From a virus (lineage: Duplodnaviria; Heunggongvirae; Uroviricota; Caudoviricetes), in IMG/VR virus record IMGVR_UViG_2531839524_000004: DNA of 64,000 nucleotides; one strand, given 5' to 3'. A program made the position numbers and the translations under genes. The notes below the pieces were generated by a model. It worked only from the letters and a program-made list of their open reading frames with translations, did not search any database and had not been told where the DNA came from. Shown here piece after piece: positions 2,226-60,013 of the stretch. Numbering within the stretch: position 1 is the first letter of the stretch; the number at the start of each line of letters is the position of its first letter.

Positions 2226-2353
2226 GATGTTTCAGTTTCTTTATCAACCTACTAATTAACCTTTACACCGCAGCCGTAGGCATTTAGGCTATATCACATA
2301 TAAGAAAACAAGTTGTTTCAGACGATAATTATATACGCAAAGGGAACTCTCCA

Positions 2354-3022
2354 ATGACCAAGATCTTTGTGGTTGGCGGCACAAAGGGCGGGCCTGGCAA
2401 ATCCACCGTTGCCCAGCAAATTGCCGTTTGCCTGAAAGTCAAAAAGAAGAAGAAGGTTTATATCACTGATATAGATATTCAGCGCACGACAACAAGCTGG
2501 TGTGAAGACCGTCGACAGAACGAAGACCTTGAGCTGATTCCTTTTGCATACGTTCAGGATGACATCATTAAGCACCTAAAATCGCTTCAGGGTAGAGCTG
2601 AGTTTGTAGTGGTAGATGCTGGTGGCTTTGACTCCGAAATTCAGCGACAAGCGATGCTGATGGCCGACGTTATCATTATCCCGCTGCGTCCTAAGCGTCG
2701 TGATTTGAAATCTTTACGTGACATCGATCCTATTATCGACAATGTTCGTAATGTAAACGATAAAGTGAAGGTCCGCGCGGTCATGAACCAGTGCCCGGCT
2801 TTGCCATCACAAGTGTCTCGCATTTTGGCGGCTAAAGAGATTGTCGAGACGTTTGGCATCGAGTCTGCGCCAGTCAATTTATATAACCGCAACGTCTATG
2901 ATGATGCGGAAGAGTCTGGTCGTTCTATCTTTGAAATGACCGGTAGCGAGCGCGACAAAAAGGCGGAAGCCGAGTTTGAAGAATTTGTAGATTATCTGTT
3001 GAGTCTGGAGGAAGAAGAATAA
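2354..3022 (+). CDS. parA: ParA-family partition ATPase
   Basis: Deviant Walker A GGTKGGPGKST near N-terminus, about 220 aa; followed by coupled small gene. Confidence 0.75.
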   Translation: MTKIFVVGGTKGGPGKSTVAQQIAVCLKVKKKKKVYITDIDIQRTTTSWCEDRRQNEDLELIPFAYVQDDIIKHLKSLQGRAEFVVVDAGGFDSEIQRQAMLMADVIIIPLRPKRRDLKSLRDIDPIIDNVRNVNDKVKVRAVMNQCPALPSQVSRILAAKEIVETFGIESAPVNLYNRNVYDDAEESGRSIFEMTGSERDKKAEAEFEEFVDYLLSLEEEE

Positions 3023-3381
3023 TGTCCATGAAAATGGGTGACCTAGCAAAGCGCAAAGAGCCTGATGCACCGGCTAAGAACACAACTCCTTTGCGCCAAC
3101 CAGTCAGACCACAGGGACGCCCGACTCGTGGCAAAGAGAAAATTAAAAGCCGCACAATGTCACTGGAGGACGAATACTTCGAACTGCTGGAGATGATGAA
3201 GTTCATCCCTCGCTTCGAGAAGTTCACTCGTTCTGACGTGATTCGAGCAGCCATTTTCCATCTGGCAGAGAAGTCACCGCAGGAAATCGAGGACATCGTG
3301 AAATTGAATGAGGCGATCACCGCTGCCGATGTCACGATGCGTACCGATGAAATCAAACGAGAGTTGATGAAGAAAGGTTAA
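3022..3381 (+). CDS. putative partition adaptor / centromere-binding protein (ParG/ParB-like small partner)
   Basis: 119 aa, start overlaps parA stop (TAATG); basic N-terminus; position typical of ParA partner; no direct domain proof. Confidence 0.45.
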   Translation: MSMKMGDLAKRKEPDAPAKNTTPLRQPVRPQGRPTRGKEKIKSRTMSLEDEYFELLEMMKFIPRFEKFTRSDVIRAAIFHLAEKSPQEIEDIVKLNEAITAADVTMRTDEIKRELMKKG

Positions 3382-3386
3382 AAATC

Positions 3387-3417
3387 ATGCATTGGCGCGT
3401 ACATTGCGCCAATGCAT
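3387..3417 (-). terminator. perfect 12-bp inverted repeat hairpin, probable terminator for the convergent minus-strand gene
   Basis: ATGCATTGGCGC-gtacatt-GCGCCAATGCAT; on the minus strand it is followed by a T-run (complement of AAAAAT at 3381-3386). Confidence 0.5.
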
Positions 3418-3433: not shown

Positions 3434-4201
3434 TTATGCCGCGCTAACACTATGTTCAGTCCTAACCACCCCAACCTTCACAAAAGGGCTACCGTAGCTT
3501 GGTGGCTTCTTGATTAATTTGCCTACATACAGTTTTCTAATATGCTCATCGGCTATTCTGCCAACAAATTCATAACGTTTTGTGTCGGGGCCAAGAGCTA
3601 TATCCCTTGTAAAGTACTGCTGAGAACCGGCTTTGACCCAGCATTCAATCTGATAAACTTCCATTATCAGCCCACCATATGTAGCGTAGGCATATTTGAG
3701 ATTCTCGTCTCTTGGAACCTTTGCCCATACGCCACGCGTAGCTTCATATAATGCCAGAGCGGACATTCCTGACTTGTAGGTGCTGTTTAGCAGGAAGGCA
3801 AGACCGGCGTGCTCAGGAGCAATTTCAGTTTCCTCTTGCAGCACTAAGTGATGGTAGGCGTCCAGTGATATTCTGCCCATCATGGAACCACTTCCTCGTA
3901 CCTTATTCGTAAGCTCTCCGACCCCCATAAGGTCGATGCATGTCGCCTCAACAAGTTTGGCTGTGGTTTCATCCATACCATGACGAAGTATATCTATGCC
4001 TAATTTTTTATTAGCCAAAAGTTCTTTGATCCGCATGGATTTGGGAGAGTCATCGGGATACTTGATGTGATCGAGACAACGAGTCGATTTGCCTTTTCCT
4101 ATGTAAAACGGTCTTTTCATCTTGTCTTCTGTATCATAGAGACAGTAAACATAGTATTTAGCCTTATCCAATGATCTCGCGTATACCGATAAATCGTCCA
4201 T
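3434..4201 (-). CDS. GIY-YIG-type nuclease domain protein (possible homing-endonuclease-like)
   Basis: N-terminal YVYCLYD...FYIGKGK...R motif typical of GIY-YIG; 255 aa; isolated minus-strand gene. Confidence 0.55.
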   Translation of the reverse strand: MDDLSVYARSLDKAKYYVYCLYDTEDKMKRPFYIGKGKSTRCLDHIKYPDDSPKSMRIKELLANKKLGIDILRHGMDETTAKLVEATCIDLMGVGELTNKVRGSGSMMGRISLDAYHHLVLQEETEIAPEHAGLAFLLNSTYKSGMSALALYEATRGVWAKVPRDENLKYAYATYGGLIMEVYQIECWVKAGSQQYFTRDIALGPDTKRYEFVGRIADEHIRKLYVGKLIKKPPSYGSPFVKVGVVRTEHSVSAA

Positions 4202-5225: not shown

Positions 5226-5268
5226 CTAATACTAGAAAACAATTTGTTTAAAAAACAAAGGAAAGCAC

Positions 5269-6609
5269 ATGACCGAACTTTGCCATACAGGACGCGGGCT
5301 GTCCGAAGAGTTTGATGAAGATTTCCAGAACAGACTGACGGCATATTTTTGTCGTGATCACGAGTTTCTTACTCGTGCGGGAGATCTGGTTGTGCCTAGC
5401 CAATTTGCCAATGCGGCCAATGCCATATTGGTTAATATGGTTTCGGGCTATTACCGTATGTACAAGAGCGCGCCCTCTTCATCTGCAATTCTGGATATGC
5501 TTAAGCGTGCGAAACGCGATAAGACTATCCGTGAGGAACTATTCGCCGATGTTGTTGCTGCGTTTAAGCGCATTCTTGCAGAAAAATTGTCCGATACCTC
5601 GTACATGGTTGACCAGGTATCAACCTTCGCAAAAAGTGTAGCGTTTGATGATGCTCTGATTAAGGCTGCTGAACTGAAAGAGAAAGGCGACTTTCACGGG
5701 GCGATGGCAATCATGGCCAAGGTTCAGCAGATTGGATCGAACGAAGCGACCGGAATCTATGACTACTACACCTCCGCAAGTGAGCGATTGAAAGCGCGTG
5801 AATATGAGGCTTCAGAGGAGTATGTACCAAACAGTATTACAACTGGACTCCCTCTTCTCGATAGGTTGCTGTACCAAAAAGGCTGGGCAAAGCGCGAAAT
5901 GGTGCTCTTCATGGGGTTCGCTAAATCCGGTAAATCGACCGCAATGGGTGAGTTTTCCATAAACGCAACACTTGCTGGCTACAATGTTCTGTATCTCTCG
6001 CTGGAGGTTCACACCACCATTTTATCCGACCGTTTTGATGCAAGATTGTCGGAGACGGAAATGTCCAAGTTGGTGGAACGGCGCGATGAAGTTCATCGCA
6101 AGTTGGCAGAGTTGGGAGCTACGAAGGGTATTGGTAGTTTGTGGGTTGTTGAGCGTCCGTCAGGAAGTATGTCACCGGCAGATCTGGACCGTATGCTTAA
6201 CAGCATGAAAGCCAACGGCATGGTGCCTGACATGGTTGTTGTCGACTACGCAGATTTGATGCGTGCCAGTTATGACCTTCGTGATGATCGCGCCAACATT
6301 CGTAGTATCTACACCGATTTACGTGCTCTTTATGACAAGCATAACGTTGCTGGGATCACGGCATCGCAGACAAACCGTGAAGGTGGCGCGTCAGAAGTTG
6401 CCACAATGATGCACGCTGCCGACAACATCGAAAAAGTACGTATTGCTGACCTGGTAATAACGATCAACAAAACCGAAGAAGAAGAAGCGAAAGGAGAGGC
6501 TCGTCTCTACTTTGCTGGTTCACGTAACCAGCAGGGAGGGATCAGCATTCGCGTTAAACAAAACCTCGAACAAATGCGCTTCATTGAGCGAATCTTAGAC
6601 GTTACCTAA
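5269..6609 (+). CDS. DnaB-like replicative DNA helicase
   Basis: 446 aa; C-terminal RecA-like domain with Walker A GFAKSGKST and DnaB-like architecture; conserved leader AAAGGAAAGCACATG. Confidence 0.8.
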   Translation: MTELCHTGRGLSEEFDEDFQNRLTAYFCRDHEFLTRAGDLVVPSQFANAANAILVNMVSGYYRMYKSAPSSSAILDMLKRAKRDKTIREELFADVVAAFKRILAEKLSDTSYMVDQVSTFAKSVAFDDALIKAAELKEKGDFHGAMAIMAKVQQIGSNEATGIYDYYTSASERLKAREYEASEEYVPNSITTGLPLLDRLLYQKGWAKREMVLFMGFAKSGKSTAMGEFSINATLAGYNVLYLSLEVHTTILSDRFDARLSETEMSKLVERRDEVHRKLAELGATKGIGSLWVVERPSGSMSPADLDRMLNSMKANGMVPDMVVVDYADLMRASYDLRDDRANIRSIYTDLRALYDKHNVAGITASQTNREGGASEVATMMHAADNIEKVRIADLVITINKTEEEEAKGEARLYFAGSRNQQGGISIRVKQNLEQMRFIERILDVT

Positions 6610-6690
6610 AAAATAAGCGTGGAGAACACCTCCACGCTTGATTCATTGGTGAAACAACTTTTCTTTTGCCAAACCACAAAAGAAAAACAC

Positions 6691-7872
6691 ATGAGCCTTT
6701 ATGTTATATCAACATTTAGGTTGGTCACAATATTGCCTGTTAAAAGTGGAATTATCGTGAGCGAGCTGAAAGAGCTAATTACCGAATTAGATTTTGAACA
6801 ATGGTTGGATACTGAAGGTATCGTTTATCGACGTGGAGGCGTGAGTACTCGCGGTCGTGAAGTGAATATCAAGGAGTGTCCGGTATGTGGCAGCTCCAAC
6901 TGGAAGGTATATTTCAATCTGACCAGTGGCGTCGGTAAATGCTTCGCTGGTGATCATCCCGAAGAGATTCAGTTCAATAAGCTGGTCTTCCTCAAGCACT
7001 ACAGCGGCAAATCACGACGACAGTTCGAGGAATATGTGCAGAACGCCCTTCTTTCCCAGGGGTGGGCACCAAAGAAAGAAGAGCTAGTGCTTGCAAGCAC
7101 AGTCGAGTTAGAGGGGCCAGTTGCACTCCCTCGTCATTACGAGCTTCCTATAGATGGTCGTCTTCCAGACTATCTGGTTGAACGAAACATATCGCCTGAA
7201 ATGGCAAAGTATTTTGACCTACGATACTGCGTCGAAGGCAAGCACGCCTATGTAGATCCGTATACAGATCAGGTTAAAGGACAGATATTCGATATGCGAA
7301 TACTGATACCGGTTTACGATCTGGATGGGGTAATGAAGACATTTCAGGGACGAGACATTACCGGTACAGCAGAACGTCGCTACCTCTTTCCTATGCAGCT
7401 TCCAGCTTCAGGTAAGTTTCTCTACAACGGCCATAATGCAGTCGGCAAACAGACGGTAGTTGTCTGTGAGGGGGCGTTCGATGTTATGGGGGTCAAACGA
7501 GCTATTTTTGACGAAGAAACATTACGTGATTACGTGGAACCAATAGGAACGTTCGGGATGCATCTATCTGGCAACACCACTCAGGATGCAGAAGATCAGC
7601 TGGGCGCGTTCCTGACGCTCAAGGCGCGTGGATTACGTAATGTGATCATGATGTGGGATAGTGAAAAGCAAGCTATACGCAACACTATGGCCGCAGCTAG
7701 GCGACTCACAAGTATTGGCCTTAATGTCAAAGTTGCGTGTTTGGGCGAGGAAGGACTCGACCCCGGCGATGCGACACCGGGGCAGATTATCAAAGCCTAC
7801 TATTGCGCAAAACCTTATTCACGACAGCTTGAACTCTTAAGCAAGGTGAAAGGCATTGCAGCACTAGTTTGA
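6691..7872 (+). CDS. DNA primase (zinc-ribbon plus TOPRIM)
   Basis: CPVCGS...C...H zinc-binding motif and TOPRIM-like VVVCEGAFDVMG; start chosen at ATG 6691 preceded by conserved AAAGAAAAACAC leader. Confidence 0.7.
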   Translation: MSLYVISTFRLVTILPVKSGIIVSELKELITELDFEQWLDTEGIVYRRGGVSTRGREVNIKECPVCGSSNWKVYFNLTSGVGKCFAGDHPEEIQFNKLVFLKHYSGKSRRQFEEYVQNALLSQGWAPKKEELVLASTVELEGPVALPRHYELPIDGRLPDYLVERNISPEMAKYFDLRYCVEGKHAYVDPYTDQVKGQIFDMRILIPVYDLDGVMKTFQGRDITGTAERRYLFPMQLPASGKFLYNGHNAVGKQTVVVCEGAFDVMGVKRAIFDEETLRDYVEPIGTFGMHLSGNTTQDAEDQLGAFLTLKARGLRNVIMMWDSEKQAIRNTMAAARRLTSIGLNVKVACLGEEGLDPGDATPGQIIKAYYCAKPYSRQLELLSKVKGIAALV

Positions 7873-8901
7873 ACCAGTATTAGTCACGTAAACATTGACC
7901 GAAAATGATTTAACTTCTGTGTTGAAGTTGTCAGTCATTACCGCGAGGTAGGCATTCTTGGTATCTCTGAATTGCTTCAGGATGATTTGAACGTTATCGG
8001 TGCAAACAAACGAGGTAGCCAGATTGCCTCCTTTCTCTGAAAAATCCTTTAGGAAAGTGCAGTCAATTTTGCCATCATTAGCGGTGAAGGTGGCATCATC
8101 ACCCTGCCAGGTAAATGTTGCGTTAACGCCTTTATCAATGGATTTAGCAATAAGTCGCTGAGTGGAGGATTTTGCTTTAGATCTTGCTGCTGATGGTTGG
8201 TATTTACCGCTTTCTTTTAGTTCTGCAATGTAATCACAGCCATTTTTATCTTCTTTATCGCAAGCTGCCTGATAAAGCTCAGCTGCTTTTTTATAATCTT
8301 TTTTAACCCCTTCACCATACTCATACATAATGCCAAGATTCGCCAATGCAGATGCACTGCCTAGTTCGATTCCTTTTTTATAATACTCTATTGCCTTTTT
8401 GTAGCTTTTTGGCACGCCTGCGCCAACATAATATAACTGTCCTAGATATGACGCAGATTCAGGGTCGCCAGCCTCTACTGCAAGTTTGTGATATTTCAGG
8501 GAAAGTTTTTGGTCTTTCTTACCCGCAAGTCCTTTATGATAAATAACACCCAGATTGTGATAAGAGTTGCCTCCAGCTGCATCACCAGCTTTCTTAAAGA
8601 GTTCCTCTGCCTTTTTGAAATTTTTATCAACCCCATACCCAAGGGCATACATTATACCTAGAGCATTAAACGCTTCTTTGTTCCCCTTAGAAGTCGCCAG
8701 TTCAAGCCATTTTCTGGCTTCATCGTAGTTTTTTTCGACACCATGAATACCTTTCATATAGTCGATACCTAAAGCACTCTGTGACTCAACGTCGCCTGCT
8801 TTTGCCGCATCGATCAGCTTTTGTATTTCATAGGCATGTGCACTCCCCGAAACAAGTAATAGCGACAACATAAAGAAAGATATTGGTTTGAAATGTTTCA
8901 T
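7864..8901 (-). CDS. secreted Sel1-like repeat (SLR/TPR-like) protein with extra C-terminal domain
   Basis: N-terminal signal peptide MKHFKPISFFMLSLLLVSGSAHA; multiple repeats with A-G-x-x-Y-x-x-G pattern typical of Sel1 repeats. Confidence 0.7.
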   Translation of the reverse strand: MKHFKPISFFMLSLLLVSGSAHAYEIQKLIDAAKAGDVESQSALGIDYMKGIHGVEKNYDEARKWLELATSKGNKEAFNALGIMYALGYGVDKNFKKAEELFKKAGDAAGGNSYHNLGVIYHKGLAGKKDQKLSLKYHKLAVEAGDPESASYLGQLYYVGAGVPKSYKKAIEYYKKGIELGSASALANLGIMYEYGEGVKKDYKKAAELYQAACDKEDKNGCDYIAELKESGKYQPSAARSKAKSSTQRLIAKSIDKGVNATFTWQGDDATFTANDGKIDCTFLKDFSEKGGNLATSFVCTDNVQIILKQFRDTKNAYLAVMTDNFNTEVKSFSVNVYVTNTGSN

Positions 8902-13311: not shown

Positions 13312-13386
13312 GATGGTGTAGCTCAGCGGTAGAGCAGTTGGCTGTTAACCAACTGGTCGGTGGTTCGAATCCACCCACCATCGCCA
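13312..13386 (+). tRNA. tRNA-Asn (anticodon GTT)
   Basis: Hand-folded cloverleaf: acceptor GATGGTG/CACCATC, anticodon loop CTGTTAA, T-loop TTCGAAT, encoded CCA. Confidence 0.85.
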
Positions 13387-13391
13387 ATTTA

Positions 13392-13478
13392 GGGGAGTTA
13401 GTCCGTAGAGGTAGCGGTGTAGACTGTAAATCTACTGTCATGGCGACTCGGGTGGTTCGACTCCATCACTCCCCACCA
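13392..13478 (+). tRNA. tRNA-Tyr (anticodon GTA), long variable arm
   Basis: Acceptor GGGGAGT/ACTCCCC, anticodon loop CTGTAAA, long variable arm, encoded CCA. Confidence 0.8.
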
Positions 13479-13482
13479 AATT

Positions 13483-13558
13483 GCCGGTTTAGCTCAGTTG
13501 GTAGAGCGCCTGCCTTGTAAGCAGGATGTCAGCGGTTCGAGTCCGTTAACCGGCACCA
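13483..13558 (+). tRNA. tRNA-Thr (anticodon TGT)
   Basis: Acceptor GCCGGTT/AACCGGC, D-arm GCTCAGTTGGTAGAGC, anticodon loop CTTGTAA, T-loop TTCGAGT, CCA. Confidence 0.85.
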
Positions 13559-13775
13559 ACACAACAGGAAAGAGCATTGAAACCCGCCGAGACTGCCCTG
13601 TTTTAAGCGTAAGTCCGTGCAAACGTCATACAGTGCTCTTTTCGTTGTGGTTGATGCGCAGACTGATGCGCGGAAAGAAATGCCCCAGCGACACACGAGG
13701 CGAGTTCACACACTGCAATGCAGTCAGTAGCCGGGGTCGCTAAGCCGGAGATCAGTACCGGTAACCACAACAATT

Positions 13776-13862
13776 GGAGAGTAGGGAGCATGGTGCTCAA
13801 GCGGTCTTGAAAACCGTCCCATTGTGCAAACGATGATGGTTCGATTCCATTACTCTCCGCCA
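13776..13862 (+). tRNA. tRNA-Ser (anticodon TGA), long variable arm
   Basis: Acceptor GGAGAGT/ACTCTCC, anticodon loop CTTGAAA, long variable arm, T-loop TTCGATT, CCA; D-arm pairing slightly irregular. Confidence 0.7.
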
Positions 13863-14016
13863 GACACAGCGTTGAGCGGTTTGGCCTTTTAATCAACTCG
13901 ATTAAGACTCCGCTAACATAAACCAGACCGCTCAACGCTGTGATAGATAATTACGGCAGACGTTCTTAACCATAGCTTGCTAACATCCTAGCAACACTTT
14001 TTTCAGCGCAAAATTC

Positions 14017-14041
14017 AAAGGGGCTTCGGCCCCTTTTTTGT
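14017..14041 (+). terminator. rho-independent terminator closing the tRNA cluster
   Basis: GGGGC-TTCG-GCCCC followed by TTTTTT. Confidence 0.8.
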
Positions 14042-14054
14042 TGAACAGTGCAAT

Positions 14055-15317
14055 TTACTTTGCATAGTCGCCCAATTTTAATATTTCGCGCTTATATTCA
14101 TTAACCATGCTACTGGATTCAGTATAAATTCGATTTAAAAGATTATCGTTATCTTTATTTTCATTTATCTTAATTAGTGCTAATTTATATTCATAGTCAT
14201 CAAATGCCACAATTAAATGGTGGCCTGGGATTATATCTTCGTCACTCTTAAAGTATATATCTTCAAGTATGTAATCTAGTTGATTAGATTTTCTTTTCTC
14301 GATGTAATCTTCAGCCATAGCTATTACATCATTCCTGTCATTTAACCTGTTTTTTTCGGAAGGCACATCTTCGTAATGTTGCACGATTGAACAACCAATA
14401 AGGCGTGGGATGTAAACGTCAAAATGAGTAACTCTATCATTCGCGGTTTTAAGTAGTTCCTCAAAGTAGTTTCTTACATGTAAAGGCAACTTCTCAAAGT
14501 AATCATTAATTATAGGAGAACAAGGAGTTTTATAATTCATAAGAACCGACGGTACGAGCTTTGGGTGTCGAAACATCCAGTCCCTTTTAACGTCCGATGG
14601 AACATAATAACTTTTAATGATATTATCAAAATAATTTATCATTCGAGATTTGAATATTTTGTTGAATCTAAGGTTTATGAATGTATCCAGATAAGGCATA
14701 TTTGAATAAGCATCATCAAAAAATATTTCATCATTGAAAAAATCATATTTATTCAATAAACAACACAGTTTTTCCGAATTAATATGTTCACAATAATCGA
14801 TTTTTAATCCAAAGATAGCAATGATCAACTTCATCTGAGGTGGGATTTTAAAAATTAATTGTGACACATACGCTCTTTTTTCCTTGAGACATTCCCCATC
14901 AATATAAAATGAACCATCCACATACTCAAATATATTAATAATATGCTTCACATACTGTATTACCTCATGCTGTCTTACCAATGGATAATATAGTCTATGT
15001 AACTCATCGCTGTTTAAATTAATTTTGTGTTTATCGATAATTTGTTTTGCAAGAAGACATAACTCATCATGTTGATTTAATAAGGAATCAAACCATTGTT
15101 TAAATGCACTCTTTCGCATTTCGAACAATGATTCAGTTGTTAATTGAAGGGCTGAAAAAGCTGCTTTTGCACTTTTTCTCGCTTCGTAGGCATTCCATGC
15201 TGTTGCTATAAAAGCAAATGCTGTAGCCAATGTTCCAACAGTTTGACCATTTAAAACAACCCAATCCCAAAAAATGACGGTGAGCAGTAGTATAATAATG
15301 AAAATTAAAAAAGGCAT
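14055..15317 (-). CDS. membrane-anchored hypothetical protein, strongly AT-rich accessory gene
   Basis: 420 aa; two N-terminal TM helices; base composition much more AT-rich than flanking genes; isolated on minus strand. Confidence 0.6.
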   Translation of the reverse strand: MPFLIFIIILLLTVIFWDWVVLNGQTVGTLATAFAFIATAWNAYEARKSAKAAFSALQLTTESLFEMRKSAFKQWFDSLLNQHDELCLLAKQIIDKHKINLNSDELHRLYYPLVRQHEVIQYVKHIINIFEYVDGSFYIDGECLKEKRAYVSQLIFKIPPQMKLIIAIFGLKIDYCEHINSEKLCCLLNKYDFFNDEIFFDDAYSNMPYLDTFINLRFNKIFKSRMINYFDNIIKSYYVPSDVKRDWMFRHPKLVPSVLMNYKTPCSPIINDYFEKLPLHVRNYFEELLKTANDRVTHFDVYIPRLIGCSIVQHYEDVPSEKNRLNDRNDVIAMAEDYIEKRKSNQLDYILEDIYFKSDEDIIPGHHLIVAFDDYEYKLALIKINENKDNDNLLNRIYTESSSMVNEYKREILKLGDYAK

Positions 15318-15491
15318 GTATGTATTTCACTCTACTAACTATAAAATATTAGGCTAATGTTAACCAAACAATGCCTTAATTAATAGATTGATCGAGGCTT
15401 TAATAGCTTTATAATGCAGACTGTAAAGATAAGTATGCACATACCTATCTTCTTTGTAAGTAAAGTTGCATATCAATTCTATGAGGTAACA

Positions 15492-15737
15492 ATGACGATC
15501 ACTATCTACGGACGAGATAACTGCTCATACTGCAAACGTGCGGTCGAGCTGGCGAAGCAACTAAAGGGACATGGCTACGGTGATTATGAGTACATCGACA
15601 TCACCACTGCCGGTATCGACAAGGAAAAACTAAGTGAAATTGTTGGTAAACCGGTAGAGACTATCCCCCAAGTGCTGATCGATGGCCAACCGATTGGCGG
15701 ATACACAGAACTGGCTGCATACGTCAGCACCCTCTGA
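15492..15737 (+). CDS. glutaredoxin/NrdH-like redoxin
   Basis: MTITIYGRDNCSYCKRA with CxxC active-site motif; GAGG RBS 4 nt upstream of ATG 15492. Confidence 0.7.
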   Translation: MTITIYGRDNCSYCKRAVELAKQLKGHGYGDYEYIDITTAGIDKEKLSEIVGKPVETIPQVLIDGQPIGGYTELAAYVSTL

Positions 15738-15741
15738 TTTT

Positions 15742-15766
15742 AACGGCTCACAGGAGCCGTTTTTAT
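15742..15766 (+). terminator. rho-independent terminator
   Basis: AACGGCTC-acag-GAGCCGTT followed by TTTATT. Confidence 0.65.
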
Positions 15767-15947
15767 TCCCACCAAACTCACTCCCGTTTCCCTTAAAATT
15801 CAAAAAACAACGTCAAAATGATTCCATACCTACTATGTATGGAATCATTACTGAAAATGAGTTACTTTGACTCTTGATCCTATAAGAATCTATGCCTAAT
15901 ATACTGTTTACTTATACAGTGAATCGGCGTAACTCGGTGATTGTCAT

Positions 15948-17051
15948 ATGAAAAATAGCTTTGACAGAGCACGCGCTGCGGAGAACACCTCAAAAGAGGC
16001 GATTGAGTATCTCGAAAGAGCATCTCAAATGCAGGCCGTTATGATCTCGCAGGTTAGCAATGATATGAGATTCTCGGACGCATTCATGTTATTTACTCGC
16101 TTATCTCTGCTGATAACAAGACGTCGGCCGGAGATCGCTGTTCATTGTATTTTGATACATGTTTTGCCGCACATTGCTGATGTAAAAGTAAGTGACATTA
16201 ATAGGTTCATGGTGAACCAACTGGTCAACCCCCTAATACTGGATGGCAAAATTGTTATGGGCCGCCGCGTTTTCTCTCTGATGAAGCAGTTCCTTAGCTG
16301 GTGTGCCTTCCAGGGGATGATCGACGTGTCACCGTTAAACGATATGTCACTAAACAAAGTTGCCGGTGGCGCAAAGCCCACGCCTCGCGAGCGGAAGCTA
16401 ACCGACGCAGAGGTATGGGTGTTCTGGAATATATGGGACTACTTCAATGTGTGCGCTGGTACAAAATGGGCGGCCAGGCTATGTCTTGTATCCGCAAGAC
16501 GACCTGACGAAGTACTGCGGGCTAAAAAAAGTGAGTTCAACCTCCAGCGTGGGGTTTGGAATCAAGGCAAGAGAAACAAATCAGCCCGTGAGCATTCTCT
16601 GCCTTTAAGCACATTAATGCGCACATGCATTGAAGAGTTATTCGAATATGGTAAAGGCAGCCAGTGGCTTGTGCCTTCGAATAAAAAAATCGGGAAAGAT
16701 CTTCCGATGTCTAAAGTGGCAATAGCCCAGGCATTACGCCGTATCCTGGAACGACCAGAACTGATGGAGCTTGAGCCATTTACACCACGAGATTTGCGTC
16801 GTACTGCGCGTAGTTACTTCCCAGCATTAGGCATAAGCCAGGAGGTATCACGTAAAATCATGAACCACAGTCTTGAGGGGATAGATCGGGTCTACGACCG
16901 GCACGATTATATGGACGAGATGCGAGACGCCTTAGAAAGTTTCTCGACGTACATCGCATCAATCGTAGAGCAACCGGATTTAGACGAAATTGACCACAAA
17001 TTCAAGGGAGATCGTCTATCGACAGAGCTTATTCGTGTAAATTTTTCATAG
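15948..17051 (+). CDS. tyrosine recombinase / phage-type integrase
   Basis: C-terminal catalytic region with DLRRT box and NHSLEG...RVYDRHDY (His and Tyr nucleophile); first His of HxLRR appears to be Arg. Confidence 0.65.
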   Translation: MKNSFDRARAAENTSKEAIEYLERASQMQAVMISQVSNDMRFSDAFMLFTRLSLLITRRRPEIAVHCILIHVLPHIADVKVSDINRFMVNQLVNPLILDGKIVMGRRVFSLMKQFLSWCAFQGMIDVSPLNDMSLNKVAGGAKPTPRERKLTDAEVWVFWNIWDYFNVCAGTKWAARLCLVSARRPDEVLRAKKSEFNLQRGVWNQGKRNKSAREHSLPLSTLMRTCIEELFEYGKGSQWLVPSNKKIGKDLPMSKVAIAQALRRILERPELMELEPFTPRDLRRTARSYFPALGISQEVSRKIMNHSLEGIDRVYDRHDYMDEMRDALESFSTYIASIVEQPDLDEIDHKFKGDRLSTELIRVNFS

Positions 17052-17432
17052 AGACTTTATGGCCTCAACAACCTTTTGTGATGCGCCTTTCTCTTTACCG
17101 AATCGCTCGTTATATGCAGCAAGAACCTGTTTTTCGTCCTCGTTAAGAGGAGCAGTGCCTTCTTTGTATAAAAATGCTGCGAGTTCGGGTTGGCGTTCTT
17201 CCAGCACCATCATCATAAGACGACTTGGCTCAATACCCAGTGCCAGCGCCAGCGGACGAACCTTATCGATAGGCAAAGGAATTTTGCCGCTTTTAATTAA
17301 AGAAAGGTTGTTGGCGTTTTTATACCCAATTGTTTTGGCTATCTGGGCCTGGCTCATAGGTGAGGATTCAATCAACCCTGCGATAAAAGCAGCGTAGCGA
17401 CTTTCTATAAATTCAATCTTGTTGTCAGACAT
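17046..17432 (-). CDS. XRE-family helix-turn-helix transcriptional regulator
   Basis: HTH signature SQAQIAKTIGYKNANNLSLIKSGK; convergent with and overlapping recombinase 3' end. Confidence 0.7.
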   Translation of the reverse strand: MSDNKIEFIESRYAAFIAGLIESSPMSQAQIAKTIGYKNANNLSLIKSGKIPLPIDKVRPLALALGIEPSRLMMMVLEERQPELAAFLYKEGTAPLNEDEKQVLAAYNERFGKEKGASQKVVEAIKSL

Positions 17433-46219: not shown

Positions 46220-47089
46220 ATGAACTTTACCAAACTGACTGACCCCCTGAAACTTGCCACCGATCGTCTCATTGGATTTAAGCCAGAACCATATGAGTTG
46301 CATGAAGGTCATGGTGTAGCTACTGAAAGTATTTACAAGATGGTCGATCAGTTTCATGAACTCTTCCAGCATCCGAGACGCGTTATGCCGACACCAGAGC
46401 TGCTTCGTCTCCGTGCAAGCCTGATTCATGAAGAAGCTGTAGTGGAAGGTATTCCAGCCGCAATGAATGGGGATATTGAGCAACTGCTGGATGCAATGGC
46501 CGACTTTTTATACGTTGGTGTTGGTACGATGGTCGCCATCAAAGGTGGTATTTCTACCGGCATGACCTATTACACGCAGGAACAGAGCATTGATCGCTTT
46601 ATGCAGACAATTTTTGTGCCCGGTAACACTGTTTTCGATGATATGGCAATGCCATTTCAGGAAGCTCGTGAGGCGTCATATATGCTCGAAGAGCTGGCAG
46701 ATAAACTTGAGAACAAGACTGTTAAGGATTCTGAGCTGATTCAGGAACTGCGCCGTGTCATGAACAAAATCTATGTGGCGTGCATGATGACCTATCGACT
46801 GGCTGATTTCCTCGGTATCAATGTAGTCGAGCTGGTTGGCGAAATTCATCGGTCTAACATGACAAAATTATGGCCTGCTGATGTCGAGGAACGTCGCCAG
46901 GCTGTGGCCAACTGCAAATACGACTCTTCAGACCTGGGATTTCGCCATGCTGATGGTACCGATAAGATGATCGGTTTTCGAATTTCCGATGGAAAGATTC
47001 TGAAGTCTCCAACCTATAGTGATGTCGATTTATCCTCCTTTGTTGAGCAAGCTAAAGCCTCAGCAATGTACGGAATGATCAAAAAATAA
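46220..47089 (+). CDS. putative MazG-like nucleoside triphosphate pyrophosphohydrolase
   Basis: All-alpha candidate with acidic EEAVVEG...DIEQLLDAMADFLY pattern reminiscent of MazG/HisE; weak, by eye. Confidence 0.35.
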   Translation: MNFTKLTDPLKLATDRLIGFKPEPYELHEGHGVATESIYKMVDQFHELFQHPRRVMPTPELLRLRASLIHEEAVVEGIPAAMNGDIEQLLDAMADFLYVGVGTMVAIKGGISTGMTYYTQEQSIDRFMQTIFVPGNTVFDDMAMPFQEAREASYMLEELADKLENKTVKDSELIQELRRVMNKIYVACMMTYRLADFLGINVVELVGEIHRSNMTKLWPADVEERRQAVANCKYDSSDLGFRHADGTDKMIGFRISDGKILKSPTYSDVDLSSFVEQAKASAMYGMIKK

Positions 47090-47156
47090 TTGTAGGTAGT
47101 TATCTATCTATGTATATTGTGTTAGCGCGTTAAATTCCTGAAACAACTATTCGTTT

Positions 47157-47182
47157 TGGTGGCCTATGGCCACCATTTTTTT
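47157..47182 (+). terminator. rho-independent terminator
   Basis: TGGTGGCC-tat-GGCCACCA followed by TTTTTTT. Confidence 0.75.
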
Positions 47183-47259
47183 ATCTATCTGGCCTTGTTC
47201 CCTCAATAAATGTAAACTCACGCAATGAATAAGTGATTACTTATCTTTGTGAGGTTTTT

Positions 47260-48363
47260 GTGTCACTCCTTTTGAATCGTGAGCATACGAACGGTCAGGT
47301 AACAAACGCATCGTATGCAAAAGTTATTGAGACGGTGCTTAAAAGCGGCGTGCAGGCTGATGATCGCACAGGCACTGGTACTTTAAGCACCTGCTACGTT
47401 CCCTCTTACTACATGCTTACTGGTGGGACTGTGCCGCTTATTTCTGGAAAGGCGGTAAATCTTAAGCCACTGCTTGTCGAACTTGAGTGGTATCTGAAAG
47501 GCACGGGCAACATCCAATTTCTCAAGGATAACGGCGTTAAGATTTGGGATGCATGGGCCGATGAGAATGGCGATTTGGGGCCAGTTTACGGTAAGCAGTG
47601 GCGTCGATGGGAAGATACCCGCATCGTGAGCCATAGTGAATATCTGAGCAAGATCGCTACTTTCCGTGAACGCGGGTACAAAGTCGAGGGATACCTAGGT
47701 ATCAGTGAAGATCGCGTAGTGCTGTCCCGTGAAATCGATCAGCTACAGCGTATTGTCGATACACTGCGCACGAACCCTACCGATCGTCGCATCATGCTTA
47801 ACGCATGGAACGTAGGCGAGCTTGAGGATATGAAACTGCCACCTTGCCACTTTGTCTTCTCTTTGTGGAGTCGTGAGCTTGATTTTGAAACCCGTTTAAC
47901 GATGGCAACTGACATTGGTCTTCAACACAGTCGCCTCGGTTACGAGTCTATCTACACCAAGATGCTATACGATCTGGAGATGGACGGCAGTGTTACTGAA
48001 GCTGAACTGGATGAACTTGGAATCCCCAAACGCATCCTCAACTCCTGCCTCGTACAGCGTAGCGTAGACACTTTTGTTGGTATGCCATTCAATATTGCTG
48101 GCTATGGCATTCTCACTCATTTTCTCGCGAAGATTACGGGTCACATGGCCGGTGCATTTGTGCATTTTGGCTTTGACGTGCATTTGTACAATAACCACAT
48201 GGAAAGTGTGCGTGAGCTAATGCAACGACAGGCTCCAGAGCATTCAGATCCGGTCGTTATATTCCCTAATGAATGGTCTGAGCTGGATGATTTCAAATGG
48301 GACGAGATTCTTATTCTTGGCTATGCCCCTCTACCGTGGATCAAGGTTCCAGTGGCGGTGTGA
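47260..48363 (+). CDS. thyA: thymidylate synthase (ThyA) with two in-frame insertions
   Basis: DRTGTGT, WADENGDLGPVYGKQWR, catalytic LPPCH, MPFNIA motifs; GTG start at 47260 after GAGG RBS; about 100 aa longer than E. coli ThyA. Confidence 0.85.
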   Translation: MSLLLNREHTNGQVTNASYAKVIETVLKSGVQADDRTGTGTLSTCYVPSYYMLTGGTVPLISGKAVNLKPLLVELEWYLKGTGNIQFLKDNGVKIWDAWADENGDLGPVYGKQWRRWEDTRIVSHSEYLSKIATFRERGYKVEGYLGISEDRVVLSREIDQLQRIVDTLRTNPTDRRIMLNAWNVGELEDMKLPPCHFVFSLWSRELDFETRLTMATDIGLQHSRLGYESIYTKMLYDLEMDGSVTEAELDELGIPKRILNSCLVQRSVDTFVGMPFNIAGYGILTHFLAKITGHMAGAFVHFGFDVHLYNNHMESVRELMQRQAPEHSDPVVIFPNEWSELDDFKWDEILILGYAPLPWIKVPVAV

Positions 48364-55118: not shown

Positions 55119-55211
55119 CGGCTGTTAGTGCATATGCATTGACCATCTCTGCGTAAGCAATTTATGTAATTAGAAAACAACTTGTTTTGACAAATAATAA
55201 AAGGAAAGCAC

Positions 55212-55637
55212 ATGTTAGGTTTCTTCAAAAAGAAAACTCGTAAAGCTGTTATCGAAGTCAAAAAAATGGAGAACCGTGATGCGGTTGAGGCCACCGTGTG
55301 GGGCGCGTACATGATCTCCTATGCCGACGGCACATGTGACGCAAAAGAAATTGCCATTCTTGAGAAGACAATTGCAGCTCTGCCTGCGTTTTCTCCGTTT
55401 GCTGGTGAAATTGCCCAAATGAGCGCCAATATCCGTGCTCGTTACGAAGCGTCCCCTCGTTCTGCTAATGCACAGGCTATTCGTGAGCTGTCTGATATTG
55501 CGGGTACTCCAGAGGCGGTCGATGTTCTGTGTCTGTGCCTTGATATTGCCGATCAGGACGGCATTGGTGAACAAGAAGAGCAGGCACTGAAAAAGATCGC
55601 CCAGGCGCTTCAGTTGTCACTGGATGCTTATCTCTAA
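55212..55637 (+). CDS. TerB-like domain protein
   Basis: By-eye resemblance to TerB tellurite-resistance domain (SYADGTCDAKEIAILE...DIADQDGIGEQEEQALKKIA); conserved leader upstream. Confidence 0.5.
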   Translation: MLGFFKKKTRKAVIEVKKMENRDAVEATVWGAYMISYADGTCDAKEIAILEKTIAALPAFSPFAGEIAQMSANIRARYEASPRSANAQAIRELSDIAGTPEAVDVLCLCLDIADQDGIGEQEEQALKKIAQALQLSLDAYL

Positions 55638-55828: not shown

Positions 55829-55934
55829 ACCGAAATAGAGAGTTTGCACCTTTACGTTTAGCTTGCTCCCCTTTTATGCCACATCACAATAAAGCCAATA
55901 AGAAAACAACTTGTTTAAGCATTAGGAAAAACAC

Positions 55935-56504
55935 ATGTGCAAGAAATGCAAAGCGATAGCTGATGAACAAAACGCCTTATTCGAAGAAATGGATGCTAAT
56001 GAACTGGTCAAAATGTTAGCCATTCTTCGAGGAATAGAAGACGTTTCCATATTTGAGAGAGTGGTTACAGCACTTAATTTTGAGTCCACCTTTGAAGAGC
56101 CAACTCAGGTTGTAGCTTTAGCACATCATTTCGGTGTTCATTATCTTGCTGAAAAAGAGCGCGCTGATAAGTTGCAGGCGACTTTGGATATGGTGAGCGA
56201 GACTCAACGAACTGATGACACTAACAAGAGTGAGGCGATTATTGCCAGCAAAGATCGTGAAATTGCTGGGCTTAAATCCTCTCTAACGATGTTGATGTCT
56301 GCGTTCAATCTTATGTCTTCTCAGGCGGGTTATAAAATGCCATCACTAAACAGCGATGATCCGATGGCCGTTCGTCAGCTTTTGGGAGCAATGGCCGACC
56401 AACTCGACGACACAAAGAGTCGGCTTGAAGACATGATGCGTGAGTTAAGCCATCGACATAACCTCGCAACACAGCCACACAAAGCCTTTCAAAGCTCTAA
56501 TTGA
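55935..56504 (+). CDS. hypothetical protein
   Basis: 189 aa; conserved leader GGAAAAACACATG. Confidence 0.5.
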   Translation: MCKKCKAIADEQNALFEEMDANELVKMLAILRGIEDVSIFERVVTALNFESTFEEPTQVVALAHHFGVHYLAEKERADKLQATLDMVSETQRTDDTNKSEAIIASKDREIAGLKSSLTMLMSAFNLMSSQAGYKMPSLNSDDPMAVRQLLGAMADQLDDTKSRLEDMMRELSHRHNLATQPHKAFQSSN

Positions 56505-57458: not shown

Positions 57459-57561
57459 CAAATACCTTTATTTAAAGGATTGCCTGTTAATTTCTATTTA
57501 GCACCTTTTCATTTTTGAAATAATTGCACCATTAAACAAATCTTTTCTTAATGGTGCAATT

Positions 57562-59247
57562 ATGAATACAGCTCTTTCCATCATCGACGATGCCAACTCA
57601 AACACTGCTATCGATTATCGTCAGGAAATGAACGTCATCCACGAAATTGTGGCCGAGTGCGAGAAGGAGATCGCCTTCATGTATCAGGTTCACGACTTCG
57701 TTTATGGAGACGAACGCCACAACATGATTAATCGCCTGCTGCAACTGAACCACCGACCAGATGAAGAACGCTCACGTTTGAATCGAGCTTGGCTGGATAA
57801 AGTCGATCTGGAATGGGTGAAACAGAATATTTGGGCCGAGTACTGGAGGAAGGTCACGGATATGACTAACGTTCTGCTGATCATGCCAGCTTCCCGTCGC
57901 GACGAGTGGCGTGAGCAGTTTATCGAGGGTAAGCAGGAAGTCATCAAAACTGACAGAACCGGCTATCAGATGAAGGTAAAAGAGTTCGTTGGTGTACCGG
58001 AGTTCAAAGCAGAAACGGTCATACCCACGATGCTTAATTTGCTGAATGACAGGCACAAATATCTCTCTGAGCGCGTGTATGGCTTGTTTAAGGCGCTGAG
58101 TCCTGCGCACAAGACAAATAAGACAAACGGTTTCAGCGAACGTCTGATAATCGCTGACTGCATTTCTGATTTCTGGCGGGACAGCGTTAGTGTGAACTAT
58201 CGCAAAGAGGACTATATCGACGATCTGCGTGTCTTGCTTCATTTCTTCGCGCACAAAGAATTTATTACCATCAACCGCACTGCTGAGGTGCTATCAGCTG
58301 CGTATCGGGCAAACGACTGCCGGACCGGTGACTGGATGAACGTCGATGGAAATCTGATGCGCGTGAAGATGTTCAAGAACGGCAACGTTCACTTTGAAAT
58401 ACATCCTGACGTGGCCTGGAAGTTGAATGAGGGGCTGGCTTACAGTATGCCTGCTGCAATCCCCGCGCCATGTCGCACCGCGCCAAAAACACGGGCACCA
58501 AAGCAGTTCGGGTTAATCCAGAAGACGATCTCCGTGCCGGTTCGCACTGCGCTTCGTGACGGGCGATTGAGCAAAGACAAAGGCGTATGGTACTTCTCTG
58601 ATTCAGCTCTCCAGAAGTCGCAGGTGGAAGAGCTTGAGCGCACACTGAGCTTCATTGGCGGCGTGCAGGAGAAAAAGCACTGGCAGTTCCCGTATGACAT
58701 CGTCCATACGCTAAATACGATTGTGGCTACCGGTTTAATACCGGATACAAAATCACACCAGTTCTACCCTCCCCCACGCTTGATTGCTGAGTACGTTGCC
58801 AGAGCCACTGAATTGAAGTCTGGTGAGAAGCTGCTGGAGCCTCAAGCCGGACGTGGGGATCTTCTGGCCTATATTAACGCCGATCTGGAAGATGTTACCT
58901 GCATAGAAATCGCACCTCTCTTCGCTGATATCCTGCGTGGAAAAGGGTATACGAACACGATTTGCTGCGACTTCATAAAGTGGTCTGAGGACAACGTAGG
59001 TTATCAGTTCGACAAAATCGTTATGAACCCGCCGTATTCGCTTGGTCGTCATAGAGAGCACACGCTGGCTGCGCTGGGGCATCTGAAAGTCGGCGGGCGT
59101 CTTGTAGCAGTATTGCCGGGCACTGCGCCAATACTGGACTGGATGACGATGGATAATTACGTTTATGCCAGAGGGAAGTCGTTTACCAACGAGTTTGAAG
59201 ACACAGGGATCACAGTCAGCGTATACGTTTTCAAACGCGTTAAATGA
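57562..59247 (+). CDS. large protein with C-terminal amino-methyltransferase domain (gamma-class, NPPY)
   Basis: C-terminal motif I-like LLEPQAGRGDLL and motif IV IVMNPPYS; N-terminal about 400 aa without recognisable motifs. Confidence 0.65.
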   Translation: MNTALSIIDDANSNTAIDYRQEMNVIHEIVAECEKEIAFMYQVHDFVYGDERHNMINRLLQLNHRPDEERSRLNRAWLDKVDLEWVKQNIWAEYWRKVTDMTNVLLIMPASRRDEWREQFIEGKQEVIKTDRTGYQMKVKEFVGVPEFKAETVIPTMLNLLNDRHKYLSERVYGLFKALSPAHKTNKTNGFSERLIIADCISDFWRDSVSVNYRKEDYIDDLRVLLHFFAHKEFITINRTAEVLSAAYRANDCRTGDWMNVDGNLMRVKMFKNGNVHFEIHPDVAWKLNEGLAYSMPAAIPAPCRTAPKTRAPKQFGLIQKTISVPVRTALRDGRLSKDKGVWYFSDSALQKSQVEELERTLSFIGGVQEKKHWQFPYDIVHTLNTIVATGLIPDTKSHQFYPPPRLIAEYVARATELKSGEKLLEPQAGRGDLLAYINADLEDVTCIEIAPLFADILRGKGYTNTICCDFIKWSEDNVGYQFDKIVMNPPYSLGRHREHTLAALGHLKVGGRLVAVLPGTAPILDWMTMDNYVYARGKSFTNEFEDTGITVSVYVFKRVK

Positions 59248-59308
59248 TAGGTAAATACTTACCTAATTTGTGTAAGAATGTAGTTACTAAACGATAAGAG
59301 AAAAACAC

Positions 59309-60013
59309 ATGAACAACCTCCAGTTAGAGCATTTTAACGTCACAGGCCATTCTGATTTTCCTTTCAAGTTTACATTGAAAGGTTATGCAGAGGATGCGGT
59401 AGGCCAGATCATTATTGATAAAGGCATCGTTAAGTTTGAGGGGGATTTTGATGAATCCGCGAAAACATTCATAGACTTCGTTGCCAAACGTTGGAGCGAG
59501 CAATGGAAAAACCTGGAAAAGCGCGCCAATGAGTTTGATCGGTTCATGGATGCAATGGATACAGCAAAAGAGGCTCTTGATGCCGGGACTCCGTTAGATC
59601 TGGAGTCACTTTTCAACGGCGAAGTGGCCTCTGCGATGTTTGCCACCATGTTCGCGGGTGAGTTCGTCCGCAGCGGTGCCAAAAACTACCTTGAGCTGGA
59701 TTACAACGTCCCTGCAATTGGCGATTTCGTCGTTACCATCCAACGCAAAGAAGGTAAGACGCCAGGTGAACGCGTCGCAGAGCTTGAGGCCGTTGTGGAT
59801 CAGCGTAACGGAGAGTGTGACCGTTTGATCAACGAGCTTCATGCACTTCGGGAAGAAAGAATATGTGCGGGTAGCAATACACGTAATGCAGCGGATATCT
59901 ACTTCCAGTTAGTTGAGGAATGCCAGATTCCACCAGGTGGCTCTCTTGTCGATTACGTCAGACATTTAATGGCGGAAGTTAACTCCAGCCATAAAGATGG
60001 TGAGGTGCGCTGA
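59309..60013 (+). CDS. hypothetical protein
   Basis: 234 aa; conserved leader AGAAAAACACATG. Confidence 0.5.
   Translation: MNNLQLEHFNVTGHSDFPFKFTLKGYAEDAVGQIIIDKGIVKFEGDFDESAKTFIDFVAKRWSEQWKNLEKRANEFDRFMDAMDTAKEALDAGTPLDLESLFNGEVASAMFATMFAGEFVRSGAKNYLELDYNVPAIGDFVVTIQRKEGKTPGERVAELEAVVDQRNGECDRLINELHALREERICAGSNTRNAADIYFQLVEECQIPPGGSLVDYVRHLMAEVNSSHKDGEVR

Follow-up and report, generated by a model that had tools for sequence, protein, structure and literature searches.

Why do about a dozen scattered genes of one virus start behind almost the same ribosome-binding leader, and why do several of them also carry a short palindrome a little further upstream? The question is raised by a stretch of 64,000 nucleotides (nt) from the IMG/VR virus record IMGVR_UViG_2531839524_000004 (Caudoviricetes), the whole of which is called the window below. 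A first-pass annotation, made from the letters of the window, had taken palindrome and leader as marks of a co-regulated gene class, for example one under a translational operator or under a regulator encoded by the element. From a comparison with related elements, we hold with moderate confidence that the palindrome is a dispersed DNA operator of an element-encoded dimeric regulator, probably a repressor, and that the leader is a separate, unstructured translation-initiation region.

Judged by its relatives, the window comes from an SSU5/pHCM2-type phage-plasmid of Escherichia coli, of which it covers the non-structural (replication) half; the assignment is made because the identity of DnaE and the gene content and synteny agree. 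For the DnaE gene (21616-25134), nucleotide identity is 94-95% with the E. coli phage-plasmids CMS-2020a and PhiR41_1, 89% with Cyrano (known in E. coli LF82 as pLF82), 85.5% with Salmonella phage SSU5 and ~80% with Klebsiella elements. Gene order is syntenic with that of annotated relatives, with high identity that includes DnaE, RepA with its iterons, ParA, CobT/CobS and NrdAB. The genes of the window serve partition, replication, recombination and nucleotide metabolism, and comprise those for a DnaB-like helicase, CobT/CobS-like proteins, DnaE with a fused uracil-DNA glycosylase (UDG) domain, an SbcCD-like nuclease, NrdAB, a ligase, four tRNAs and RepA; T4-like gp32, UvsY and UvsW are encoded by the element as well. 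Protein-level relatives of DnaE were found in 1,183 PLSDB plasmids (~780 at at least 80% identity), and phage-plasmids of this type are widespread among clinical Enterobacteriaceae, some of them carrying resistance genes (PMC3999498, PMC9600943). A literature search returned no paper describing operators, promoters or a lysis-lysogeny switch of SSU5-type elements.

The abundance of the palindrome is indeed far above chance, as first claimed: GAAAACAANTTGTTT has nine matches in the window with at most one mismatch, against 0.15 expected. Its symmetric core, AAACAANTTGTTT, is found at eight places at the same tolerance, all eight intergenic in a window of which 12.1% is intergenic (P = 4.5e-8). 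We refer to this motif as family 1; its core is AAACAA-N-TTGTTT, which in the lineage of the window takes the form GAAAACAA-N-TTGTTT[TC/AA]. The palindrome positions listed previously were right to within one base (31432 rather than 31433, and 44954 rather than 44953), and the spacing to the start codon, put at 15-35 nt, measures 16-35 nt from the end of the palindrome to the ATG. Two sites had not been listed, at 17962-17978 (upstream of 17996) and 60443-60459 (upstream of 60513). It had also been missed that the palindrome is the core of a longer conserved module, that leader and palindrome are independent of each other, and that there is a second, commoner palindrome family. The family-1 palindromes are as follows:
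2304-2320, plus strand: GAAAACAAGTTGTTTCA, 35 nt before the parA ATG (2354), abutting a TATAAG -10-like hexamer.
5235-5251, plus strand: GAAAACAATTTGTTTAA, 19 nt before the ATG of the DnaB-like helicase (5269).
17962-17978, plus strand: GTAAATAATTTGTTTTC, degenerate, upstream of the CobT-like gene (17996).
31432-31448, plus strand: GAAAACAATTTGTTAAA, after a terminator hairpin.
44954-44970, plus strand: GATAACAACTTGTTTAA, 31 nt before the nrdB ATG (45000).
55173-55189, plus strand: GAAAACAACTTGTTTTG, upstream of a TerB/TciA-like gene (55212).
55902-55918, plus strand: GAAAACAACTTGTTTAA, 18 nt before the ATG at 55935.
60443-60459, plus strand: TTAAATAAATTGTTTTC, of the upstream type, directly 3' of a GGCC hairpin, with an HD-domain gene at 60513.
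The orthologues of the degenerate site at 17962-17978 are perfect palindromes in SSU5, Klebsiella and pMT1. At 31432 the hairpin stem holds TTGGAC (-35-like), followed after 16 nt by TATTAT (-10-like), and 3' of the palindrome at 60443-60459 come TGtGAAAAT (extended -10-like), a half-site GAAAACAA at 60494 and then the HD-domain gene.

SSU5 has 20 copies of the family-1 core, PhiR41_1 and Cyrano have 18 each and a Klebsiella pneumoniae plasmid has 14, and plasmid p2 of Klebsiella sp. PO552 has 18 despite a DnaE that is only 59% identical; there the core of 13 base pairs (bp) alone is kept, and the flanks differ, being typically GTAAACAA...TTGTTTAC. An Acinetobacter baumannii relative (DnaE 39%) effectively lacks the motif, with just three matches, loose and non-modular. 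The motif is thus confined to the enterobacterial branch of the family, in agreement with the first-pass suggestion of an element-specific regulator site. The Acinetobacter plasmid NZ_CP031384 contains at least 22 copies of another dispersed palindrome, AGTCAGTACTGACT, many of them between -35-like and -10-like hexamers. By this comparison dispersed promoter-associated palindromes appear to be a trait of the whole family, their sequence differing by lineage. In a scan of viral contigs with the exact pattern, matches lay mostly in contigs of ~90-112 kb, which is the size range of SSU5-like elements, together with scattered single matches, and the scan was uninformative.

Identity among orthologous sites is 95-96% over the twelve positions of the arms, 68-83% in the adjoining intergenic flanks and 40-70% at the centre base. 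Over 101 distinct site variants the centre base is A, C, G or T in 24, 26, 28 and 23, respectively, and departures from the consensus affect one arm in 107 instances and are compensated in 1. The site therefore combines two-fold symmetry, two conserved half-sites and an unconstrained dyad centre, as is expected of the operator of a dimeric regulator. Because the arms are conserved, the centre is free and one-arm changes are uncompensated, the palindrome fits a DNA site for a protein dimer and not an RNA hairpin. Reading it as a hairpin or terminator was rejected on the same counts, together with its 1-nt spacer and its lack of a T-run. An Rfam scan of the window returned tRNAs only.

Where do these sites lie relative to promoters? 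In the long module a T-rich stretch, often TGn, and GATAAT, TATTAT or GAAAAT are followed by aACaCCAAcAA, the palindrome, the Shine-Dalgarno sequence and ATG. In a scan with a home-made, permissive sigma-70 matrix, the top-scoring promoter near a site reaches 7.5 on average (background 5.25, standard deviation 2.4), and the starts of predicted -10 elements cluster at +26 and at -25/-26 from the palindrome centre. In the +26 register the right arm overlaps the -35 region and the centre would lie at ~-38; in the -25/-26 register it would lie at ~+13. Relatives also have paired palindromes flanking one -10, exactly 51 bp (about five helical turns) apart. In some copies the ATG is just 12 nt 3' of the palindrome, and transcription must therefore begin within or upstream of it. 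The distance of downstream-type sites to the -10 is variable, from abutting at parA to ~10 nt after the -10 at most small early genes, and such variation is typical of repressor operators, not of activator sites. The two fixed registers, too, favour a repressor operator, as far as predicted promoters can tell. The association with promoters rests on this permissive scan, from which we infer the promoters themselves.

A pair of family-1 palindromes with a spacing of 25 bp is found beyond the window, upstream of terS (SSU5 54-130; Cyrano 55-130). After it, directly ahead of the ribosome site of terS, come a GC-rich hairpin and a T-run. With a terminator placed behind a promoter in this way, the late operon may be under antitermination control.

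The uniform leader is equally real. The "about a dozen" leader genes of the first-pass annotation are borne out by nine matches to AAGGAAAAACACATG with at most two mismatches, against 0.27 expected (shuffled sequences, maximum 2), and by near variants at three more starts, namely 5269, 55212 (aaaggaaagcacATG) and 30333 (ataggaaaacacATG). The nine matches are all on the plus strand and all at starts of open reading frames (6691, 20200, 21616, 26865, 34028, 37961, 45000, 55935 and 59309). The leaders, each with its ATG, are:
5254-5271, plus strand: aaaggaaagcac-ATG, helicase.
6676-6693, plus strand: aaaagaaaaacac-ATG, primase; the start agrees with the PhiR41_1 annotation.
20185-20202, plus strand: aaaggaaaagcgc-ATG, CobS-like AAA ATPase.
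21601-21618, plus strand: aaaggtaaaaacac-ATG, DnaE.
26850-26867, plus strand: caaggagaaacac-ATG, gp32-like SSB.
30318-30335, plus strand: ataggaaaacac-ATG, membrane protein of 66 amino acids (aa).
34013-34030, plus strand: aaaaggaaaaacac-ATG.
37946-37963, plus strand: aaaggaaaaatac-ATG, SbcD-like.
44985-45002, plus strand: aaaaggaaaaacac-ATG, NrdB.
55197-55214, plus strand: aaaaggaaagcac-ATG.
55920-55937, plus strand: ttaggaaaaacac-ATG.
59294-59311, plus strand: taagagaaaaacac-ATG, Ead/Ea22-like.
The leader consists of an AAGGA Shine-Dalgarno sequence, an A-rich spacer of 7 nt and CAC before the ATG; AAGGA, AGGA or GAGG stands 7-8 nt before the ATG of annotated genes, as in an ordinary ribosome-binding site. 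Palindrome and leader do not form the one composite signal that had been proposed, and are separable: just four of the eight palindrome genes have the leader, and most leader genes lack the palindrome, lying behind family-2 palindromes (described below) or behind neither family.

In SSU5, CAC precedes the ATG at 12 of ~130 annotated starts, all in the non-structural part and none in the structural module. The intergenic gaps before these genes have a median of 102 nt, which makes them first genes of transcription units. Less structure is predicted for their initiation regions than for those of other genes (ensemble energy -4.2, versus -6.8 and -7.5 kcal/mol; p = 0.004 and 0.0003), and these regions are enriched in A and C and depleted in T. 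ACAC-ATG is found at the orthologous SSU5 genes, DnaE, SbcD, SSB and NrdB among others, and in PO552 at DnaE, SbcD and SSB although the Shine-Dalgarno core varies there; the Acinetobacter relative has no ACAC-ATG starts. Leader genes show 89% conservation over positions -4 to -1, where other first genes show 62%. The sbcD gene has a conserved block of ~35 nt, tatcaaaataaccacaaaggaaaa.ac-ATG, beyond which the upstream sequence diverges, and PO552 sbcD has a perfect TATAAT 26 nt before the ATG. In our reading the leader makes up almost all of the 5' untranslated region in compact cassettes of promoter and ribosome site, and has probably been selected as unstructured.

Expression data for a relative bear on the proposed repression. 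In the Cyrano lysogen of E. coli LF82, expression of nearly every gene with a family-1 site in front of it is at background, as seen for the genes of the helicase, CobT, NrdB and the TciA-like protein and for CYRAN_101-110, which are small genes; the exception is the parA operon, at ~5-9 times background (PMC9928086 S1 table). Ciprofloxacin induces Cyrano 39-fold. The silence of the lysogen fits repression in the plasmid state.

Beyond what is shown above, namely the statistics, distribution, conservation and registers of the motif and the low predicted structure of the leader, we infer protein binding, repression, transcription starts and the identity of the regulator in the following scheme. 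An element-encoded dimeric regulator would bind ~20 palindromes per genome, at promoters of the sigma-70 type read by host RNA polymerase, with the operator centred at ~-38 over the -35 region or at ~+13 over the first transcribed bases, and at some promoters in both registers, exactly 51 bp apart. Its occupancy would most probably repress these promoters in the plasmid (lysogenic) state and so keep the early/replication gene class silent, and the parA promoter would be among its targets. For promoter-proximal non-structural genes, the leader would serve as a 5' untranslated region that is very short, poor in G and U and unstructured, allowing efficient translation initiation, and its uniformity would come from the packing of promoter, start site and ribosome site into ~35 nt together with selection against structure. 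The co-regulated class with an element-specific regulator site, as first suggested, is thus supported by a motif that is genome-wide, intergenic, apparently locked to promoter-like elements and under purifying selection in both arms. The motifs would amount to a concrete regulon map, with one family tied to the XRE promoter and the other to the parA promoter, and are usable as binding probes, for placing gene starts and transcription units and for comparison with the mycobacteriophage motifs discussed below.

Several observations weigh against this scheme. When four sites in the window were scanned for a strict sigma-70 consensus, no promoter was found at 2312, 5243 or 55910, and at 55181 there was a 9-of-12 match only, which would leave an implausible leader of ~7 nt. 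The clustering in two registers overstates the independence of the sites, many of which are orthologous or paralogous copies. Upstream-type sites adjoin an extended -10 without a -35, an architecture that also fits activator-dependent promoters, and the silence of the lysogen is equally expected if an activator is missing. In addition, the conservation of CAC at -3 to -1 goes beyond the needs of ribosome binding and leaves room for a trans-acting factor.

Some of these points would suit a site for an activator of a middle or late class, at which a lytic-phase protein bound at ~-38 recruits host RNA polymerase to promoters lacking a -35; we regard this as possible but unlikely. A candidate is the conserved 88-aa DNA-binding protein CYRAN_123/SSU5_130, encoded just upstream of the terS tandem sites outside the window, which is 74% identical in PO552 (DnaE 59%) and silent in the lysogen, as are the target genes. 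The two sites 25 bp apart before terS, and the rigid geometry of PO552 and upstream-type sites (palindrome, 17-18 nt, TGnGATAAT, no canonical -35), argue in the same direction. However, the downstream register is the commoner one in E. coli and Salmonella elements (11 sites at -25 to -27, against 8 at +26, mostly from PO552), and since its palindromes lie over or after the predicted start (centre ~+2 to +13), beside acceptable -35/-10 pairs such as TTGGAC-16-TATTAT, activation is not expected from them; nor does the varying position of downstream-type sites relative to the -10 favour it. Improbable in our estimate is that one or both motifs are translational operators in mRNA, with a T4 RegA-like repressor binding GAAAA(A)CA leaders. 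Downstream-type palindromes and leader both fall within what are predicted to be 5' untranslated regions, conservation of the CAC next to the ATG exceeds the needs of a ribosome site, and an FljA-family protein is at hand, SSU5_121/CYRAN_114, with a Pfam match to Flag1_repress (3e-81). The action of FljA proteins on fliC mRNA is post-transcriptional (PMC2652032), and the Salmonella fliC leader has CAAGTTGT and AAGGAAAA. On the opposite side, the palindrome also occurs upstream of the -10, cannot form a loop with a 1-nt spacer and shows no compensation, and the equal conservation of its arms is not required for recognition of single-stranded RNA, all of which speaks against the translational operator that had been envisaged for the palindrome. 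For the leader, CAC at -3 to -1 is conserved, no repressor is linked and the resemblance to the target of FljA is weak: CAAGTTG, CAAGTTGT and AAGGAAAA are missing from the fliC leader of E. coli. The FljA-like protein, moreover, is just 26% identical in PO552, where the palindrome core is unchanged. A plasmid carrying fljA(z66), pBSSB2, is nevertheless reported to have made a motile E. coli non-motile on transfer (PMC2652032).

It is still less probable that the element exploits the site of a host transcription factor or nucleoid protein. The core is invariant in elements of Escherichia, Salmonella, Klebsiella and Yersinia and absent from the Acinetobacter-borne relative, as such a reading would have it, and the consensus sequences of IHF (WATCAANNNNTTR) and KdgR (GAAACA-N-TGTTTC) resemble the palindrome loosely; a fit to either, however, needs two mismatches or a 2-bp change in spacing, and we know of no enterobacterial factor with the consensus of the palindrome. 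Hardly credible, finally, is a spread of the repeats by recombination as promoter-leader cassettes, like the promoter early stem-loop (PeSL) modules of T4-type phages, with common descent as the source of uniformity. The whole module of ~55 bp (T-rich stretch, TGnGATAAT, AACaCCAACAA, palindrome) does recur before unrelated small genes, but descent alone accounts neither for the excess of arm over flank identity and the free centre base nor for the persistence of only the 13-bp core in PO552.

If the palindrome is a repressor operator, which protein binds it? The best candidate, though unproven, is the small partner of ParA, encoded as follows:
2354-3381, plus strand: parA (2354-3022) and the gene of its 119-aa partner (3022-3381).
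The parA promoter is covered by a perfect family-1 site in each of the four enterobacterial lineages examined (the window, SSU5, the Klebsiella pneumoniae plasmid NZ_CP132690 and Klebsiella sp. PO552), and small-ParA operons are usually autoregulated by the partner protein. Among 793 plasmids, nearly all have the partner at 90% identity or more; it has the invariant segments KSRTMSxEDE and FTRSDVIRAAI, and is expressed in the Cyrano lysogen; the Acinetobacter relative has no homologue of it and lacks the family-1 motif as well. Support for a DNA-binding fold was not obtained from Pfam, a PDB sequence search, a profile search, an AlphaFold monomer (pLDDT 63) or Foldseek, and a ribbon-helix-helix fold is an idea suggested by our reading of the alignment. 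In addition, pMT1 lacks the partner, yet four orthologous sites are intact there (48 of 48 core positions, against 92% flank identity), a comparison made ambiguous by the history of this branch. That the partner binds the palindrome, autoregulating parA, providing ~20 centromere-like anchors and silencing early/replication promoters, is a tentative proposal that we consider rather doubtful. If true, plasmid maintenance and repression of the lytic programme would be directly coupled, with an unrelated small protein following a KorB- or SopB-like logic.

Pfam scans of ~30 candidate small proteins found no DNA-binding domain beyond XRE and a weak helix-turn-helix in SSU5_116. The other candidates, both encoded outside the window, are the FljA-family protein and the 88-aa protein whose gene precedes the tandem sites at terS. 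In the lysogen, the element's ParB_N proteins are silent. The gene of the FljA-family protein, a repressor of phase-1 flagellin, lies at 46897-47343 on the minus strand of SSU5, and the protein may silence host flagellin as a lysogenic-conversion function. The region upstream of parA in NZ_CP031384 has local arrays of GTATTACC repeats, a conventional centromere or operator layout.

The XRE-family regulator, which had been put forward as the protein to try on the palindrome, is a poor candidate. It and the palindrome at its own promoter are located as follows:
17046-17432, minus strand: XRE/HTH_19 regulator (equivalent to CYRAN_45), adjoining the integrase gene.
17464-17477: family-2 palindrome GGTAAGTGCTTACC, upstream of the XRE gene.
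A different palindrome, GGTAAG-NN-CTTACC, is found at its own promoter, ~30 bp ahead of the start codon; this is so in the window as well as in a pHCM2-like plasmid of S. Typhi and in a Klebsiella plasmid. The protein is only 56-66% identical between lineages with an identical family-1 core, and homologues from Klebsiella, PO552 and Acinetobacter differ in the presumed recognition helix. In the lysogen CYRAN_45, a putative repressor, is ~10-fold above background. XRE belongs to a block of integrase, XRE regulator and a small divergent 70-aa gene (15948-17897) that is missing from SSU5 and present in the plasmid-maintained relatives Cyrano, pMT1 and Klebsiella plasmids. SSU5 is termed virulent in the abstract of one paper, and may be a repressor-deletion derivative; its lack of XRE is therefore not decisive against this regulator.

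The palindrome at the XRE gene is one of a dispersed second family, more abundant than the first, of the form GATAAGTA-NN-TACTTATC with the consensus GATA(A/G)GTA-NN-TAC(T/C)TATC. Loose matches (at most two mismatches) number ~17 in the window and ~30 in SSU5, where they extend into the structural module. The family-2 sites of the window are:
4453, 12544, 17464, 20122, 26761, 30285, 34326, 37829, 42513, 47092, 47229, 52064, 54281 and 59247.
They are intergenic and often on or just before the ribosome site, one for instance ending at the ATG of 34343. The counterpart in PO552 is GTATGTA-NN-TACATAC, and in the Acinetobacter plasmid NZ_CP031384 the positional analogue, AGTCAGTACTGACT, has three copies beside the XRE homologue of that element. 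Family 2 probably makes up the operator set of XRE, which is more likely to bind there than at family 1.

How do these motifs compare with known systems? The closest published analogue of the combined picture, an analogy and not membership, is that of the SAS (start-associated sequences) and ESAS (extended start-associated sequences) of Cluster K mycobacteriophages. These comprise a 13-bp motif, GGGATAGGAGCCC, which includes the Shine-Dalgarno sequence and lies 3-7 bp before the start codon of non-structural genes only, with 17-bp inverted repeats (spacer 4-13 bp; a hairpin is unsupported) upstream of about half of the genes (2011, PMC3203893); their function was still unexplained in 2025 (PMC12699233). 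Shared with the present element is a near-invariant ribosome-site motif with upstream inverted repeats at a subset of non-structural genes. The sequence, however, is unrelated, and host and phage lineage differ. With another sequence and another repeat geometry, the motifs here do not qualify as SAS/ESAS; the palindrome here is compact (13-17 bp with a 1-nt centre), occurs also without the leader and is apparently locked to -10-like elements. The same paper mentions the stoperators of mycobacteriophage L5 of Cluster A (PMC3203893). Like the sites described here, stoperators are tens of repressor sites in short intergenic gaps genome-wide, silencing prophage transcription; they are asymmetric, orientation-dependent 13-mers, whereas the sites here are symmetric.

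Dispersed operators instead of a single immunity region are also a property of the phage-plasmid P1, where operators of the C1 immunity repressor, asymmetric 17-mers (ATTGCTCTAATAAATTT), are scattered genome-wide over replication and other lytic operons; the consensus here (AAACAANTTGTTT) is symmetric, and sequence and protein homology are lacking. The KorB operator of RK2, TTTAGCSGCTAAA, is a 13-bp palindrome with an odd centre whose class I sites lie at ~-39/-40, and KorA/KorB of RK2 and SopB of N15 are partition-system proteins that also silence genes, the centromere sites of N15 being dispersed among phage genes. The likeness lies in short palindromes dispersed over a replicon at fixed promoter positions, and the differences in the sequence and in the 119-aa ParA partner encoded here, with no homologue of ParB/KorB, so that the sites are not KorB operators. 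The translational operators of T4 RegA and gp32 mark a class of early/replication mRNAs that share sequence around the start codon; early/replication genes of the present element, which has T4-like proteins, likewise share sequence in this region, but the target sequence differs and no RegA homologue was seen in the element. Because it has no sequence or protein in common with the P1, L5, RK2 and N15 systems, the palindrome is best described, by analogy, as an analogue and not a member of them. What appears new is a dispersed operator-like palindrome together with a uniform leader in SSU5-type elements; regulatory arrangements of this general kind are known.

Other features of the window concern replication and accessory genes. 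The C-terminal UDG domain of DnaE is of family 4 and covers residues ~1051-1170; in PO552 DnaE and UDG are annotated as two genes, and an HNH endonuclease gene interrupts dnaE in some Klebsiella relatives. About ten iterons (ACCGCTGACAGCATAC) at 35114-35640 and 36761-36866 flank repA (35646-36860, minus strand), and this region is the plasmid replication origin. A tRNA cluster at 13312-13862 comprises Asn, Tyr, Thr and Ser, the SSU5 annotation there being tRNA-Asn only. It is adjoined by a 420-aa gene (14055-15317, minus strand) in a low-GC island at 14001-16000 (34.8%, versus ~45% elsewhere); the gene, whose product has no Pfam or NCBIfam match, is probably an acquired accessory gene. Further minus-strand accessory genes, variable among relatives, lie at 3434-4201, 7864-8901 and 25313-26161 and encode a LEM-3-like GIY-YIG protein, a Sel1-repeat protein and a DUF4365 protein, and Cyrano has toxin-antitoxin genes at some of the matching positions.

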